From Candidatus Thorarchaeota archaeon (GTDB lineage Archaea; Asgardarchaeota; Thorarchaeia; Thorarchaeales; Thorarchaeaceae): 32,000 nt of DNA. The stretch lies in NCBI GenBank assembly GCA_003345555.1, contig PRDJ01000077.1:35105-67104 (forward strand), read 5' to 3'. Positions 6,297 to 32,000 of this stretch are shown in pieces. A program made the translations under genes and the position numbers. The notes beneath the pieces are model-generated. The model saw nothing but the letters and a program-made list of their open reading frames with translations, ran no database searches and was not told the origin of the DNA. The stretch's first letter is position 1. Each line of letters opens with the position of its first letter.

Positions 6297-6656
6297 TTAC
6301 GTGCTAGTCTTGTCGAATACCGTTTCAATGGTCTCATCGAGGAAACCTTTCGCGGTCACCATGGCTTTCCGGCCCTTGTCAGTTATACCATAGTACTTTC
6401 TAGGAGAACCGCTTTCTTCCATTTCTTGAATAAGGCCGTCCTTTACCAAGCGATAGATAATCGCGTACCCGCTGACTGTCGCTGGAGAAAACCTGAACCT
6501 CTCTGTCACCAGTTCCTTAATCTCATACCCGTAGTGTGGCCGTTCTTGCAGCAAACGGAGAATGTAGATCCATAGCATCTCCTTAGTGAGTTTGTTTACG
6601 AGTCTAGTGACTGCCTTAGGTTGAGCCGATGGCTCGGGGTCCGATACTCGCGGCAT
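6297..6656 (-). CDS. PadR-family transcriptional regulator
   Basis: ILRLLQERPHYGYEIKE...YAIIYRLVKDGLI...RKYYGITDKGR matches the PadR pattern. Confidence 0.92.
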   Translation of the reverse strand: MPRVSDPEPSAQPKAVTRLVNKLTKEMLWIYILRLLQERPHYGYEIKELVTERFRFSPATVSGYAIIYRLVKDGLIQEMEESGSPRKYYGITDKGRKAMVTAKGFLDETIETVFDKTST

Positions 6657-7261
6657 TAATCATTCATCCTCTCGTATTCTGATATGACGGCTGCCACGCA
6701 ATGGCTGCCCAAGTAACTGGTCTTTCCGAATGAAACATGAGGTATCCCGTACTGGTCAGCTATTTGAAGCGTCTTCGTGTCAAAGCCTTGATGGTCTCCG
6801 AGAATAAAACTGTTCTCAGCATTCCTGCACAGGTCTGAGACCTCCGAGAAGGGTTTGCCGTCAGCTTCCAAAAGCCAGACTGAGGAATCGGCGGTGGCCC
6901 TGCTGACCTTGATGGCCTGCTCTAGGCCGGATTGTCTGACCTTCACGAAGCCAGGCGGCCTACCTGCAAGAGAATCCTTGATTACTTGGGCCCATCTCAC
7001 CTCACCTAGAGGCAACAATGGGCCGGGTTCGCTGAAAGTGAGTGTGACCGAATCTTGGAGAATCGCACTTAGCTCTAGATGAGGTCTTGGCCATGAATCC
7101 GGTGCCCAATCGAAACAAGCACTGAGGTCGCGGCACAGAATATCTATCCTCTTTCCTGAACTTGGCAAGTCTTTCATGAGGAAATCATCTTTCGTTGGAG
7201 CGTGAGGCAGAATCTGAATGAACTTCAACAGCTGAGATGGCTTTGTCATTCGGCCTACCAA
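6656..7261 (-). CDS. trmY: tRNA (pseudouridine54-N1)-methyltransferase, SPOUT fold
   Basis: SGKRIDILCR, FILGDHQGF, SFGKTSYLGSHCVAAV. Confidence 0.85.
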   Translation of the reverse strand: MVGRMTKPSQLLKFIQILPHAPTKDDFLMKDLPSSGKRIDILCRDLSACFDWAPDSWPRPHLELSAILQDSVTLTFSEPGPLLPLGEVRWAQVIKDSLAGRPPGFVKVRQSGLEQAIKVSRATADSSVWLLEADGKPFSEVSDLCRNAENSFILGDHQGFDTKTLQIADQYGIPHVSFGKTSYLGSHCVAAVISEYERMND

Positions 7262-19794: not shown

Positions 19795-20516
19795 ACCAGA
19801 AGAACGATGACCACCCCTACTGAGAACACGACTGTGACCGTGAGTATGACCGAAGCGGGGGTATAAACCGACGACAATTCAATCGAGAGCCTGTAGGGGG
19901 TACCGAACGAGTAAGTGGTGTTTCCTCTCACGAGCAGGCCTGTTCCAGTGTCATAGGCTAGATACGTCCTCTGGGGTTCGCCGTAGGAAGTCTCGTCCTG
20001 TTCATAGTCGAAGACCAAGCAGTTGTAGGCAACTCCGCTTACTTCTACAACACCGCGGTGGGACGACATCGTACCATTCAGGTAGTTTCCCGCCAGTCTT
20101 TGGGCTGACTCGAAAGCCGTTTCATTCAGGTCATTGAGGTCTCCTTCTCCTGTCTTGACTATTAGTCCTGGAAGCCATGCCGTTAGACCCCATACCCCAA
20201 GGGCCAAGTCCTTTGCAAGATCTGTATCATTGGCGCGCCAAGTCCGGTTGCCCAGCGTTATGATGCCTTCAATGTCTTGCCCCACTGCAAGAACAGTCAA
20301 TGTCATCCTGCTGTCAGGCTGAGCAAGCCAGTAACCATTGCCAGACCAGTACAGGCTGAAGGGAGCACTGGGACAATCAGCAACTCTCCAGGTGATCTCT
20401 GTATTTCCCCATATGTTTGGGATGAGTATGGCGCCGTAGTCATTACTGATGAACGTCCCTCCGCCATGAATGATAGTTGCCAAGATGAATGCTGCTAACA
20501 GACATTTCTCCTTCAT
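19773..20516 (-). CDS. Hypothetical exported protein with C-terminal TM anchor
   Basis: N-terminal signal-like segment, beta-rich body, C-terminal hydrophobic helix ending KRR; overlaps the S-component start. Confidence 0.7.
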   Translation of the reverse strand: MKEKCLLAAFILATIIHGGGTFISNDYGAILIPNIWGNTEITWRVADCPSAPFSLYWSGNGYWLAQPDSRMTLTVLAVGQDIEGIITLGNRTWRANDTDLAKDLALGVWGLTAWLPGLIVKTGEGDLNDLNETAFESAQRLAGNYLNGTMSSHRGVVEVSGVAYNCLVFDYEQDETSYGEPQRTYLAYDTGTGLLVRGNTTYSFGTPYRLSIELSSVYTPASVILTVTVVFSVGVVIVLLVCVIKRR

Positions 20517-28060: not shown

Positions 28061-29008
28061 ATGGGCGAGCCCAAGCTTATTGACGCACGGTATCATCTTC
28101 GTGTCATTCTGCTGCTCATCTTGTCAGTCTCGATGGTGTCGAGTGCCAGTATTCTAATACGCCTCAGTATATCGCCGCCACTTGTCAAAGTCTTCTGGAG
28201 AACGTTATACGGATCAATGATCATGGCATCAGTCGGCGCGTTCCGCGGGAATCTTCATGCCTTCAAGGAGCCTGTTCTCAAGGGCAGGTGGACGTGGCTG
28301 ATATTCATAGGCATAATGCTTTCTCTGCATTTCTCTGCATGGTTTGTTTCTCTCTCGATGACCAGCGTTGCAGCCAGCGTCGTGTTGACGGACTCATCGC
28401 CGATATTCACAGCTGTTCTGTCAACGCTAGTACTACGAGAGTCGCCTCGGGCAAGAGCATGGGCCGGTGTACTCATAGCATTCACAGGTGCATCTGTACT
28501 TGCGTTGGCCGACATCGAATCGAGCGGGACCGAGGCGTTTGCAGGCGATCTCCTTGCTCTTCTTAGCGCCTTCTTCCTATCAGTCTACTTCATCGGCGGC
28601 AGAAAATACGCAAGGGGAATCCCCAATTCTGTGTATACTACTGTTGTTTACTTCTCTGCTGCCCTAACAACGCTTGCACTGTGTTTGACTACAGGTGTAG
28701 ACGTGATAGTACTCATTCCGTCTGAGATAGCGCTGTTCATTGCACTTGCAGTCTTCCCAACAGCTCTGGGTCATTCGGTGAACAACTACCTCTTGACGCT
28801 GGTCCCGGCATATGTTGTGTCTTCTGCAGTGCTTGGGGAGCCTGTCGGGGCGACATTGCTAGCCGCTTTGATTCTTCAAGAGATTCCTTCTGCGATGACT
28901 CTTGTTGGGTTTGTGGTCATCCTTCTTGGAGTCGCTCTTGTGCTGATGGCGCTTCCAAAGGACGAAGGGACAACGCCCTCAACCCTTGATGACTCCGATA
29001 GGTCGTAG
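28061..29008 (+). CDS. EamA/DMT-family transporter
   Basis: About 10 TM helices in two repeats; SSPIFTAVLS..LRE, LGEPVGATLLAALILQE. True start is ATG 28061. Confidence 0.92.
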   Translation: MGEPKLIDARYHLRVILLLILSVSMVSSASILIRLSISPPLVKVFWRTLYGSMIMASVGAFRGNLHAFKEPVLKGRWTWLIFIGIMLSLHFSAWFVSLSMTSVAASVVLTDSSPIFTAVLSTLVLRESPRARAWAGVLIAFTGASVLALADIESSGTEAFAGDLLALLSAFFLSVYFIGGRKYARGIPNSVYTTVVYFSAALTTLALCLTTGVDVIVLIPSEIALFIALAVFPTALGHSVNNYLLTLVPAYVVSSAVLGEPVGATLLAALILQEIPSAMTLVGFVVILLGVALVLMALPKDEGTTPSTLDDSDRS

Positions 29009-30424
29009 TCTGACAGCTTTTGTGGCTATTCCAATCTCATGTGAGACCCTAACGACTTCGTCGACGTCCTTGTAAGCTCCGGGCGCTTCTTCGGCAATGC
29101 CTATCGCTTGAGGCGATTTGACAATTATACCGCGGGCTGCAAGTTCTCGCTGCACCTCGCCGCCTCTGAACTCCTTTGTGGCTCTCACCCGGCTCATGAA
29201 GCGGCCAGCTCCATGGGCAGTTGACCCAAAAGACAGCTCCATGCTCTTCGGATTCCCCACAAGAATGTAAGAGGCAGTACCCATGGTGCCCGGAATCAGA
29301 ACGGGCTGGCCCATATTCTTGTACTTTGCAGGAGTCTCGGGATGACCCGGTGGGAAGGCACGAGTTGCGCCCTTCCGATGAACCAACACCTTCCTCCTCT
29401 TGCCATCTATGGTATGTTCTTCTACCTTGCCCATGTTGTGACAGACATCGTATATCATATGCATGTCCAGTTCTTCACTGGATCTTTGCAGCACCTTTGC
29501 GAATACCTCTCTGGTCCAGTGCATCATGCACTGCCTGTTTGCCCAGGCGAAGTTTGCTGCAGCACTCATTGCACCCAAATACGCCTGCCCCTCGGGTGAT
29601 GTAGTGGGTGCACTGCAGAGTTCTCTATCGGGCACTTGAATGTTGTATTTCCTCATGGCTTGGGTCATCAACTTGATGTAGTCATCACAGACTTGGTGAC
29701 CCAGCCCGCGAGAGCCACTGTGTATCATCACAGTGACCTGGCCCTTTCTTGTGATTCCCATCGCCTTAGCCGCCGCTTGGTCATAGATTTCATCGACGAG
29801 CTGGATCTCGAGAAAGTGATTGCCTGAGCCCAACGTACCGACTTGGTTTCGTCCTCTGGCCTTGGCTTCTCCCGAGACCTTGGTAGCATCGGCAAATGGT
29901 AGTTGCCCTCCTGCTTCGGTGTACTCTGGGTCTTCCTCCCAGCCGAAACCGTGCTCGACTGCCCAAGCGGCTCCGTTGTTTAGTACGCCGTCAACTCCTC
30001 CCAAAGCCTGCAGGTCAATCTTGCCTGTTCGCCCAACGCCTGTGGGGACATCCAGGAACAGGCGGTCGATAAGGTCTTTGAGCTTAGGTCGGACATCGGC
30101 TTCATCAAGACTGGTCCTGACTACACGGACGCCACAGTTGATGTCGTAGCCGACTCCACCCGGTGATATCACACCTTGTTCGTAATCGGTCGCAGCTACT
30201 CCGCCGATGGGGAATCCATACCCTTGGTGTCCGTCTGGCAAGACTATGCTGTGAGTGTAGATGCCTGGAAGGCATGCAACATTGACTCCTTGCTCGAAAG
30301 TGGCGTCCTGCTGCATTTTCTTCACGAGCGATCCCGACGCGTATACTCTAACAGGCACTTTCATGCAATCCTTGGTGCCCTTCGGGATTTCGTACACGTT
30401 CTCAGCGATTCTCTTTACTTCCAA
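28979..30424 (-). CDS. rtcB: RtcB tRNA-splicing ligase
   Basis: PDGHQGYGFPIGGV, VGYDINCG, GTLGSGNHFLE, HSGSRG, HRKGAT, HGAGR, EEAPGAYKD. Confidence 0.98.
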   Translation of the reverse strand: MEVKRIAENVYEIPKGTKDCMKVPVRVYASGSLVKKMQQDATFEQGVNVACLPGIYTHSIVLPDGHQGYGFPIGGVAATDYEQGVISPGGVGYDINCGVRVVRTSLDEADVRPKLKDLIDRLFLDVPTGVGRTGKIDLQALGGVDGVLNNGAAWAVEHGFGWEEDPEYTEAGGQLPFADATKVSGEAKARGRNQVGTLGSGNHFLEIQLVDEIYDQAAAKAMGITRKGQVTVMIHSGSRGLGHQVCDDYIKLMTQAMRKYNIQVPDRELCSAPTTSPEGQAYLGAMSAAANFAWANRQCMMHWTREVFAKVLQRSSEELDMHMIYDVCHNMGKVEEHTIDGKRRKVLVHRKGATRAFPPGHPETPAKYKNMGQPVLIPGTMGTASYILVGNPKSMELSFGSTAHGAGRFMSRVRATKEFRGGEVQRELAARGIIVKSPQAIGIAEEAPGAYKDVDEVVRVSHEIGIATKAVRLRPIGVIKG

Positions 30425-30574
30425 GCTGGCTCATTCCGTCCTTCTGGTTGATTCTTCTCCGGTCGTGCTATAAGTATTGTGAACGCGTCTCGTCCCTCGT
30501 CTTTATTACGCACGTTCTCTCTCCGATGTATGGGGCCGCTAGCCCACACATGAACAGGAGGTTGATGTACCCAA

Positions 30575-31609
30575 GTGGCGAGAGTGCGTCTCACTGCAAT
30601 GGTTACTCAGCATGGATGATCCTGCAAGGTCCGTCAGCAAGACCTGACCCGACTTCTACAATTAGCGGGTCTGCTGCCGCTAGGCGCGTCATACTCCGGG
30701 GACATCGGTCATGATGCAGTTGTTCGTGTCCTTAGCGATGACATTGCTGTCGTCGAGAACGTGGATGTATTCACACCGATTCATGACGATCCTCATACTC
30801 AAGGTGAGATCGTTGCCTGCAATGCGACAAACGATGTCTACGCAATGGGCGCTGTCGACGTGATTTCTCTTCAGGCCTTTCTTGGGTACCCCGCTGAACT
30901 CCCCGAGGAGATTGCCGCAGAAGTACTGAAGGGAATGAATGACTTCATGGCAGGAATCGGATCGCAAGTTACCGGCGGACAGACGATAAAGAACCCTTGG
31001 CCAGTCTTCGGAGGGATATGCCTTGGTGTGGCCCACCCTCACGAAATCGTGTATCCAAATGGCGCGAAGGTAGGTGATGCTGTCGTCTTGACGAAACCGC
31101 TTGGTATACAGCCTGCGATGAGATCGTACAGGGAACTGAACGATGAAAGGCGTGACCGCCTACTCGAGCGTTTCGAGGAGCAAGACTTGCTGGCGGCGCA
31201 AGAAAGCGCTGTCCGGGTGATGACTAAAAGCAGCCTCGAAGTTGCTAAGGCAATGAGGGCGGTCGGAGTGAATGCGGCGACCGACGTCACGGGATTCGGT
31301 TTGATAGGTCATGCAAACAACGTTGCATGGATGAGCGGTGTTGATGTTGTCTTTGACCAGATTCCTGTCATTCGAGGAACTCTTGAATTGGCAGAGTTCT
31401 TTGGCCAGAAGCTCTCGAAAGGACTGAGTGCGGAAACAGCTGGCGGAATGCTGTGTTTCATGCAGCCAAAGAAGGTCGATCGATTCACCGAGATTCTGAG
31501 TCAATCGGGTCTTCCATGTTGGACTGTGGGCAGGACAGAGAAACCCAAGGGCTCTGCAAATGCAAGACTCGCAGAAGGGGTGCAGTTTATCGAGACCGAG
31601 TTCCCATGA
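30575..31609 (+). CDS. selD: Selenophosphate synthetase containing selenocysteine (in-frame UGA, Sec15)
   Basis: From GTG 30575: (M)ARVRLTAMVTQHG-TGA-SCKVRQQDL..., continuous with DVFTP, NDVYAMG, GGQT, LTKPLG, TDVTGFGLIGH and ETAGGML. Confidence 0.93.
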
Positions 31610-31645
31610 AGCTTCGAAAATCCTAGAAGGAGACGAAGCTAAGGA
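31606..31645 (+). promoter_or_regulatory. SECIS-like stem-loop starting at the selD stop codon
   Basis: AUGA, stem AGCUUCG/CGAAGCU, unpaired AAAA, mini-stem UCCU-AGA-AGGA. Confidence 0.55.
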
Positions 31646-31739
31646 TTGCCGCCGCGAGCGGCCGGTCTCATTTACGTCCGCTTGGTTCTGGTATCAACAG
31701 AATGGGGAGAGTCGTCTTTCGTCAATGAAAGTCGATCGA

Positions 31740-31949
31740 TTAGCCCAGCAAGTGCCTCAGTTTGTAGAGAAGATCGGCGATTCCTTCGAGCGGTCTAGTG
31801 TCGATTTCGGGATCGATGAATTTCCTGAGTTCCTTTAACTCTCCCTCGTCTTCTTCATGGAAGAGCCAAAACACATCACTTGTTGTTTCCTCAGACTGAG
31901 TCATTTGTAATCTCACTTCTTGCGCGTGCCTCTTTGTCTGTCTTGTCAT
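31740..31949 (-). CDS. Small hypothetical protein, probably leaderless
   Basis: Protein-like C-terminal half (ELKELRKFIDPEID...LLYKLRHLLG); BRE/TATA-like GAAAATGGTTATAT about 20-35 bp upstream on the minus strand. Confidence 0.55.
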   Translation of the reverse strand: MTRQTKRHAQEVRLQMTQSEETTSDVFWLFHEEDEGELKELRKFIDPEIDTRPLEGIADLLYKLRHLLG

Positions 31950-32000
31950 GTTCTAAACAATCTGTTGATATAACCATTTTCGACAAAAATACGGCATTTG

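Follow-up and report, generated by a model that had tools for sequence, protein, structure and literature searches.

The window analysed here is a stretch of 32,000 nucleotides from the genome of a Candidatus Thorarchaeota archaeon, and it contains a gene for selenophosphate synthetase (selD) on its forward strand. The gene occupies a single frame, which runs from a GTG at 30575 to a TGA at 31609 and holds one internal TGA at 30617–30619, i.e., at codon 15, translated here as U. The features of the coding part and its start are:

30575..31609, forward strand: selD coding sequence, 344 codons followed by a TGA stop, with a GTG start
30617..30619, forward strand: UGA codon 15, very probably read as selenocysteine (from the translation, structure alignments, orthologues and other assemblies)
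30623..30628, forward strand: codons of Cys17 and Lys18 in the G-U-x-C-K active-site loop, almost invariant in the orthologues
30575..30760, forward strand: the 62 N-terminal codons missed by ORF callers that halt at UGA (ORF list and public gene calls)
30556..30562, forward strand: Shine-Dalgarno-like AGGAGGT, 12 nt upstream of the GTG start

The N-terminus of the encoded protein reads V-A-R-V-R-L-T-A-M-V-T-Q-H-G-U-S-C-K. Since the nearest in-frame stop upstream is a TGA at 30563–30565, the GTG at 30575 is the sole in-frame start ahead of the selenocysteine (Sec) codon. It lies 15 nt upstream of the codons for R-L-T and is kept in 16 of the 18 genomes of the family that carry the gene, several of which contain no in-frame ATG, while a GGAGG motif occupies the equivalent upstream site in all 18. 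Close to the Shine-Dalgarno sequence there is also an ATG (30564–30566), at the site used as the selD start (M-Y-Q-V...) in several other genera; here it is one base out of frame. On the other side, the gene for the RNA ligase RtcB (28979–30424, reverse strand) diverges from selD; the two have a 150-nt intergenic region in common, which includes A/T-rich boxes such as TTTATTA at 30505–30511.

The initial annotation of this DNA had placed 62 extra codons, an in-frame TGA at 30617–30619 and an AGGAGGT at 30556–30562 ahead of the called start, and all of these coordinates were found to be exact in the sequence and its translation. Its further statement that SelD is truncated in the ORF track was likewise borne out. 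A plain ORF listing yields only the 282-residue C-terminal piece, from a GTG at 30761 to the TGA at 31609, and this truncated product is the exact gene call in three public assemblies. Ordinary gene callers thus cut off the active site of the enzyme because of the in-frame UGA.

The read-through protein shows clear similarity to selenophosphate synthetases (selenide, water dikinases). Its best NCBIfam model is PRK14105, which matches residues 3–340 with 291.1 bits (cut-off 291), and TIGR00476 matches the whole length, including the N-terminus, with 223.4 bits (cut-off 125). The Pfam domains AIRS (PF00586, 59.5 bits) and AIRS_C (PF02769, 62.1 bits), both of the PurM-like fold, are present as well. 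Among solved structures the best matches are human SEPHS1 and Leishmania SelD, with E-values of 5e-44 and 4.5e-41 and alignments that extend from residue 4–5 to residue 340; the structures concerned are PDB entries 3fd5, 9hjt and 5l16 (human SEPHS1/SEPHS2 and Leishmania SelD). In these alignments U15 lies opposite the catalytic cysteine of Leishmania SelD and opposite Thr29 of human SPS1 (SEPHS1), the latter being the Sec position of SPS2 (SEPHS2). The human and Leishmania proteins contain the same G-x-x-C-K loop, in which HG-U15-S-C17-K18 corresponds to G-C-S-C-K in Leishmania SelD and to G-T-G-C-K in human SPS1, so that Sec replaces the Cys of the former and the Thr of the latter. The residues for binding of ATP and metal ions in the motif V-D-x-x-x-P-x-x-D-D-P ... 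N-x-x-x-D (D, DD, N, D) are, by eye, the same as those of human SPS1. The eukaryotic proteins are 40–50 residues longer. The identity to the SPS protein of Lokiarchaeota is presumably about 40%. The proposed assignment as SelD is supported by both full-length family matches over their cut-offs, and by the position of the UGA at the catalytic site, followed by C-K; judged from these alignments, the gene is a full-length selD, for whose product the formation of selenophosphate is predicted.

To assess the internal TGA, the gene was compared with 40 related genomes and with other assemblies. Within the family, 17 of the 24 further genomes contain a full-length SelD orthologue, giving 18 with the window's own. 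All 18 contain exactly one in-frame TGA, at the homologous codon, within the motif R-L-T-x-x-V-x-x-H-G-U-S-x-K; in one of these genomes V replaces the C of the G-U-x-C-K loop. Beyond this family, the same TGA is found in three further orthologues of the phylum, and the orthologues that bear it span at least 13 genera. The stretch of 58 residues that separates R-L-T from the called start shows 53–86% identity to the orthologues, a range comparable to that of the remaining protein (62–89%), and the extension is therefore coding. These data also bear on the idea that the real product is the 282-residue protein starting at GTG 30761, a truncated SelD-like protein with another role and an upstream frame that is not read through. 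The output of the gene callers in the three public assemblies agrees with this idea, but such a protein would lack the catalytic Sec/Cys-Lys loop, and the conservation of the 58 upstream residues and of the GGAGG ahead of 30575, together with the alignment of SelD profiles and solved structures from residue 3–5 onwards, makes it highly improbable.

The TGA, the start region and the 3′ structure described below are all present in the ENA assembly ERZ27227668 and in the Logan assembly SRR6436091, which differ from the window by SNPs elsewhere, and a 6.4-kb Logan DNA contig shows no difference from the window at any of these three places. An assembly or sequencing error, with a true codon TGT or TGC and a Cys-type SelD, would have to have arisen in three separately built contigs (the window, ERZ27227668 and SRR6436091) and in all relatives. 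The comparison was made at the level of contigs rather than raw reads, which leaves some room for an error, but given the recurrence of the codon this explanation is hardly credible. RNA contigs from two wetland metatranscriptomes match selD and its downstream region with 95–100% identity, at 30621–31421 and 31662–31800, thus not spanning the UGA; a third run (X3) gave a partial match of 32 nt only. These contigs hint at a population that is transcriptionally active in wetland soil, while proving neither transcription nor strand.

Another possibility considered was that UGA stands for a standard amino acid, such as Trp, Gly or Cys, throughout the genome. Apart from the in-frame TGA itself, nothing was found in its favour. 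TGA terminates 452 of the 1012 open frames of at least 300 codons (45%), selD too ends in TGA, and Sec-specific machinery and a SECIS element are present. A general change of the codon is thus scarcely conceivable. With TGA as the normal terminator of 45% of the long frames, the recoding in selD must be specific to its site.

At the 3′ end of selD, alignment of the 18 family genes reveals a structured RNA element with the characteristics of a SECIS, the parts of which are:

31592..31669, forward strand: whole three-armed SECIS, which includes the final five sense codons and the stop codon (RNAalifold and pair counts in 18 orthologues)
31592..31598, forward strand: 5′ strand GAGACCG of the basal stem, paired with CGGUCUC at 31663–31669 (7 pairs, 3 with compensatory changes, 100% paired)
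31602–31604 with 31643–31645, forward strand: 3-bp helix of the RNAalifold consensus
31606..31609, forward strand: AUGA, the 5′ side of the SECIS core, of which UGA 31607–31609 is the gene's own stop (3′-end alignment)
31610–31616 with 31634–31640, forward strand: upper helix of 7 bp, 6 of 6 counted pairs covarying
31610..31640, forward strand: type II apical region, with unpaired AAAA at 31617–31620 and a mini-stem UCCU/AGGA (31621–31624 with 31628–31631)
31641..31642, forward strand: AA, the 3′ side of the SECIS core, which is GA in 17 of 17 relatives
31648..31662, forward strand: 3′ side hairpin GCCGC/GCGGC (31648–31652 with 31658–31662) with the 5-nt loop CGCGA (5 pairs, 4 covarying, 96.7% paired)

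Over the 18 genes, 95% of the aligned cells are paired and 14 of the 21 pairs covary, against 31–46% paired in slid controls; none of 500 shuffles matched the observed values. Compensatory changes are present also where the 5′ strand of the element codes for protein. The minimum free energy is −33.5 kcal/mol. All 18 genes end in TGA. The 5′ side of the core is AUGA or GUGA in the relatives, with CUGA in one, and the consensus of the side-hairpin loop is CGCRA. Among the 18 orthologues the AA on the 3′ side of the core is unique to this genome, and the A at 31641 was confirmed in two other assemblies and in the DNA contig. An Rfam scan of positions 31400–32000 with E-values up to 10 returned neither a SECIS nor any other family. 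PRK14105, the best NCBIfam model for the protein, describes the SelD of Methanococcales, a Sec-type archaeal enzyme with a SECIS in the 3′-UTR that contains a GAA_A bulge; the element found here differs from it in its kink-turn-like AUGA/GA core. According to the main text of Huang et al. (ISME J 2024, PMC11227280), an Asgard type II SECIS consists of a core NNGA...[G/A]A, an upper stem of 6–14 bp, a bulge of 3–6 nt and a mini-stem of 2–8 bp. The present element fits this model with AUGA...AA, a 7-bp stem, the AAAA bulge and a 4-bp mini-stem.

Similar elements accompany other selenoprotein genes of the same genome. A six-frame scan identified two vhuU-type mini-genes with the motif D-C-U-L-S-C-A-A-H, located as follows:

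G000:C24, about 19894–20122, forward strand: vhuU mini-gene
G000:C36, about 6587–6800, reverse strand: vhuU mini-gene

In both, the UGA stop of the gene lies within the AUGA core of its own SECIS, and the SECIS folds into three arms like that of selD, with CGCA(A) in the loop of the side hairpin. The expectation of the initial annotation that other selenoproteins of this genome are mis-annotated too holds for at least these two mini-genes and does not extend to the five MvhD/FlpD homologues (PF02662), none of which has an in-frame stop. Scanning for the motif D-P-U-x-x-C gave chance matches only; the vhuU genes have D-C-U-L-S-C instead. In the own genome, a covariance model of the 18 selD elements detects the selD element and not those of vhuU; a second match, on contig C50 (13.7 bits, E-value 1.5), was rejected as noise.

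The three-armed architecture is thus common to selD, where it covaries across 18 genomes, and to both vhuU genes. A rather speculative reading of this similarity is that the Thorarchaeial SECIS is a three-way junction, in which the basal stem closes the kink-turn arm and the 3′ side hairpin with its GNRA-like CGCRA loop, and that it serves as a putative docking site for an archaeal SECIS-binding factor. As part of this reading, the AUGA_AA core would be a natural variant that is tolerated through the extra contact.

The assembly to which the window belongs (2.28 Mb, 82 contigs, 93.5% complete) contains a gene for SelB/EFSec, with 267.9 bits to TIGR00475 (cut-off 242) and a match to the domain aSelB_III (PF21440). 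It also contains a PSTK-like gene, adjoining tRNA-Sec in a conserved cluster, for which TIGR03574 is the best family match, although its 139 bits fall short of the curated 290.5-bit cut-off; the protein has a match to Pfam KTI12 too. An exact look-up returned a match for the 251-residue form of PSTK and none for the 258-residue form. Family searches of this assembly found neither tRNA-Sec nor SepSecS. Among the 24 family genomes, tRNA-Sec scores above the Rfam cut-off in 20 and SepSecS is present in 21, including all three congeners, and in most genomes the two genes are about 1 kb apart or less. Synteny in two congeners gives the gene order SelB, SepSecS, a small gene, tRNA-Sec and PSTK, and in the three genomes checked tRNA-Sec and SepSecS are located between SelB and PSTK. 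In the own genome, contig C42 ends 70 nt past the stop codon of SelB, with the start of SepSecS, by coordinates, within its last ~80 nt. Contig C24 ends inside tRNA-Sec; its final 52 nt, which begin with the loop CUUCAAA, match the 3′ part of a congener's tRNA-Sec without a difference and retain the UCA anticodon. A near-identical sibling contig of ENA assembly ERZ27227668 spans the intervening gap of 2.1 kb, with 99.96% identity to C24 over 6842 nt and 99.7% identity to C42 over 3785 nt. The regions concerned are:

G000:C42, 75117–76677: end of the cluster on the SelB side
G000:C24, 27701–28563: end of the cluster on the tRNA-Sec side
L058, 6001–10448: the cluster on the sibling contig
L058, 7061–7711, reverse strand: 216-residue protein of family NF045535, between SepSecS and tRNA-Sec

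The bridging sequence carries a complete tRNA-Sec (RF01852, 57.7 bits, cut-off 47; called tRNA-SeC by ARAGORN), a SepSecS with 437 bits to TIGR03531 (cut-off 225), and the 216-residue protein, which matches NF045535 ('Sel_Asgard, putative selenocysteine system protein') with 199 bits. The Sec cluster of the family is SelB, SepSecS, NF045535, tRNA-Sec and PSTK, and the draft assembly breaks inside it; tRNA-Sec and SepSecS appear to be missing because of a single assembly gap between C24 and C42. It had been proposed that the genome be searched for tRNA-Sec, SelB, PSTK and SepSecS, with absence of the first two pointing to a pseudogene. SelB is present, tRNA-Sec is partial at the end of C24 and complete in the sibling contig, and SepSecS is clearly identified in the latter, whereas the assignment of PSTK stands at the level of a best family match that scores under its cut-off. 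The Asgard setting suggested earlier agrees with the occurrence in this cluster of NF045535, an Asgard-only family, and the Thorarchaeota label also fits the selD SECIS features known from the literature.

These results allow a judgement on whether a nonsense mutation has killed selD in an organism that no longer uses Sec. The family searches of the own assembly, with neither tRNA-Sec nor SepSecS, would suit such a pseudogene, and so would the change from GA to AA on the 3′ side of the SECIS core, seen in this genome alone. But the two missing genes fall exactly in the contig gap and are both present in the sibling contig, and AUGA_AA cores are given as accepted variants of Asgard SECIS elements in the main text of PMC11227280. 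The gene contains no further stop or frameshift, its N-terminal part is conserved to the same degree as the rest, and an identical TGA occurs in every orthologue found, in at least 13 genera. A pseudogene is thus very unlikely. On the sequence comparisons, the TGA is neither an error nor a pseudogene lesion, and knowledge of the pathway would predict insertion of Sec at this codon.

The NF045535 protein of the cluster is found in 23 of the 24 family genomes, including three (G005, G008 and G016) in which neither SepSecS nor SelD gave a match, and also in three genomes of other families that show no match to SepSecS. Its occurrence is thus not strictly coupled to use of Sec. Its AlphaFold2 model (pLDDT 91) comprises an α/β N-terminal domain and a helical bundle. 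A Foldseek search against the PDB gave generic matches only, with query-normalised TM-scores below 0.35, and the Z-scores of 10–11.5 obtained with VIA-align wide for the helical bundle and the α/β domain are in the common range of that tool. A fold like that of L7Ae/SBP2 was not seen in these fold searches, which is uninformative either way.

Several genomes of the comparison contain further SelD-like proteins. Proteins of 750–780 residues with a SelD-like part (38–41% identity) and no in-frame stop occur at loci L050, L051, L052, L054 and L055 (genomes G014, G024, G009, G015 and G011, respectively) and resemble the NCBIfam 'oxidoreductase/SelD-related fusion'. In G009, G014 and G024 this fusion-type protein is the only SelD-like match, despite the presence of tRNA-Sec and SepSecS. 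In another family of the phylum, a TGA occurs in frame in a Sel_Asgard homologue and an extra in-frame TAA in selD homologues (G030:C1:349170-349682, G030:C1:553469-554221 and G040:C2:6102-7136); these homologues in G030 and G040 may be damaged genes or have another explanation.

Taken together, the gene is very probably the selD of a Thorarchaeota-type Asgard archaeon whose product is itself a selenoprotein, with the UGA at codon 15 decoded as Sec under the direction of the SECIS. The initial annotation had considered UGA recoding very likely, and the conservation of the TGA in all orthologues, the covarying SECIS and the genes for SelB, tRNA-Sec and SepSecS argue for that view against a pseudogene. 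A point against it is that in the own assembly SepSecS is limited to its first codons, at a contig end, and tRNA-Sec to its 3′ part; both genes are complete in the sibling assembly and in congeners. In the proposed mechanism, translation would start at GTG 30575, and the archaeal SelB/EFSec would bring in Sec-tRNA(Sec) to decode UGA codon 15. As expected from established knowledge of the pathway, the eukaryote-like SECIS of type II, into which the gene's end extends, would direct this decoding from a distance of ~990 nt. The second UGA lies inside the SECIS core, and it is proposed that it terminates translation because the structure has been melted by the arrival of the ribosome. Sec15, Cys17 and Lys18 would form the catalytic loop, a mobile N-terminal element for the uptake of selenide, while the AIRS-type body would bind ATP and make selenophosphate. 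SepSecS could then use the selenophosphate for the conversion of phosphoseryl-tRNA(Sec) to Sec-tRNA(Sec).

Sec-type SelD proteins and SECIS elements of Asgard archaea, Thorarchaeia included, have already been published (PMC4989117 and PMC11227280). Mariotti et al. (Mol Biol Evol 2016, PMC4989117) described in Lokiarchaeota a Sec-type SPS, recovered as a gene fragment only, with a distinct lokiSECIS, type II-like in its shorter main stem and additional apical stem. The terminal UGA codons of the Loki genes are close to or inside the SECIS, for which a minimal-distance rule was proposed. The present gene is like that of Loki in its Sec-type SPS, its type II-like SECIS and its terminal UGA, but belongs to a different Asgard class. 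In the main text of the survey of more than 400 Asgard genomes by Huang et al. (PMC11227280), SelD is a selenoprotein in more than 90% of the Sec-using Asgard archaea, and most selD SECIS elements are of type II, with a core [A/G]UGA_[G/A]A, unpaired A's ahead of the mini-stem and G-A-G/C-U-C pairs in the lower stem. The same text mentions an Asgard-only hypothetical protein near secS, efSec and pstk, and the failure of SECISearch3 on Asgard SECIS elements. The cores it lists for Thorarchaeial selD are GUGA_GA or AUGA_GA, with AUGA_AA in other families; the gene studied here shares with these the type II SECIS and the lower-stem pairs, but differs in its AUGA_AA core. Neither the covarying 3′ side hairpin nor the AA core variant in Thorarchaeial selD was found in the main texts of PMC11227280 and PMC4989117. 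These two are minor details, the only ones that go beyond the 2016 and 2024 papers, and they leave the reading of the finding unchanged.

The main value of the finding lies in annotation. In public gene calls this selD is recorded as a 282-residue fragment that lacks the active site, and the small vhuU genes are easily missed, so that selenium use by Thorarchaeota is under-counted in metabolic reconstructions. Moreover, since tRNA-Sec and SepSecS lie no more than ~1 kb apart in this family, one gap can hide both, and a draft genome that apparently lacks these two genes can reflect a single break in its assembly.
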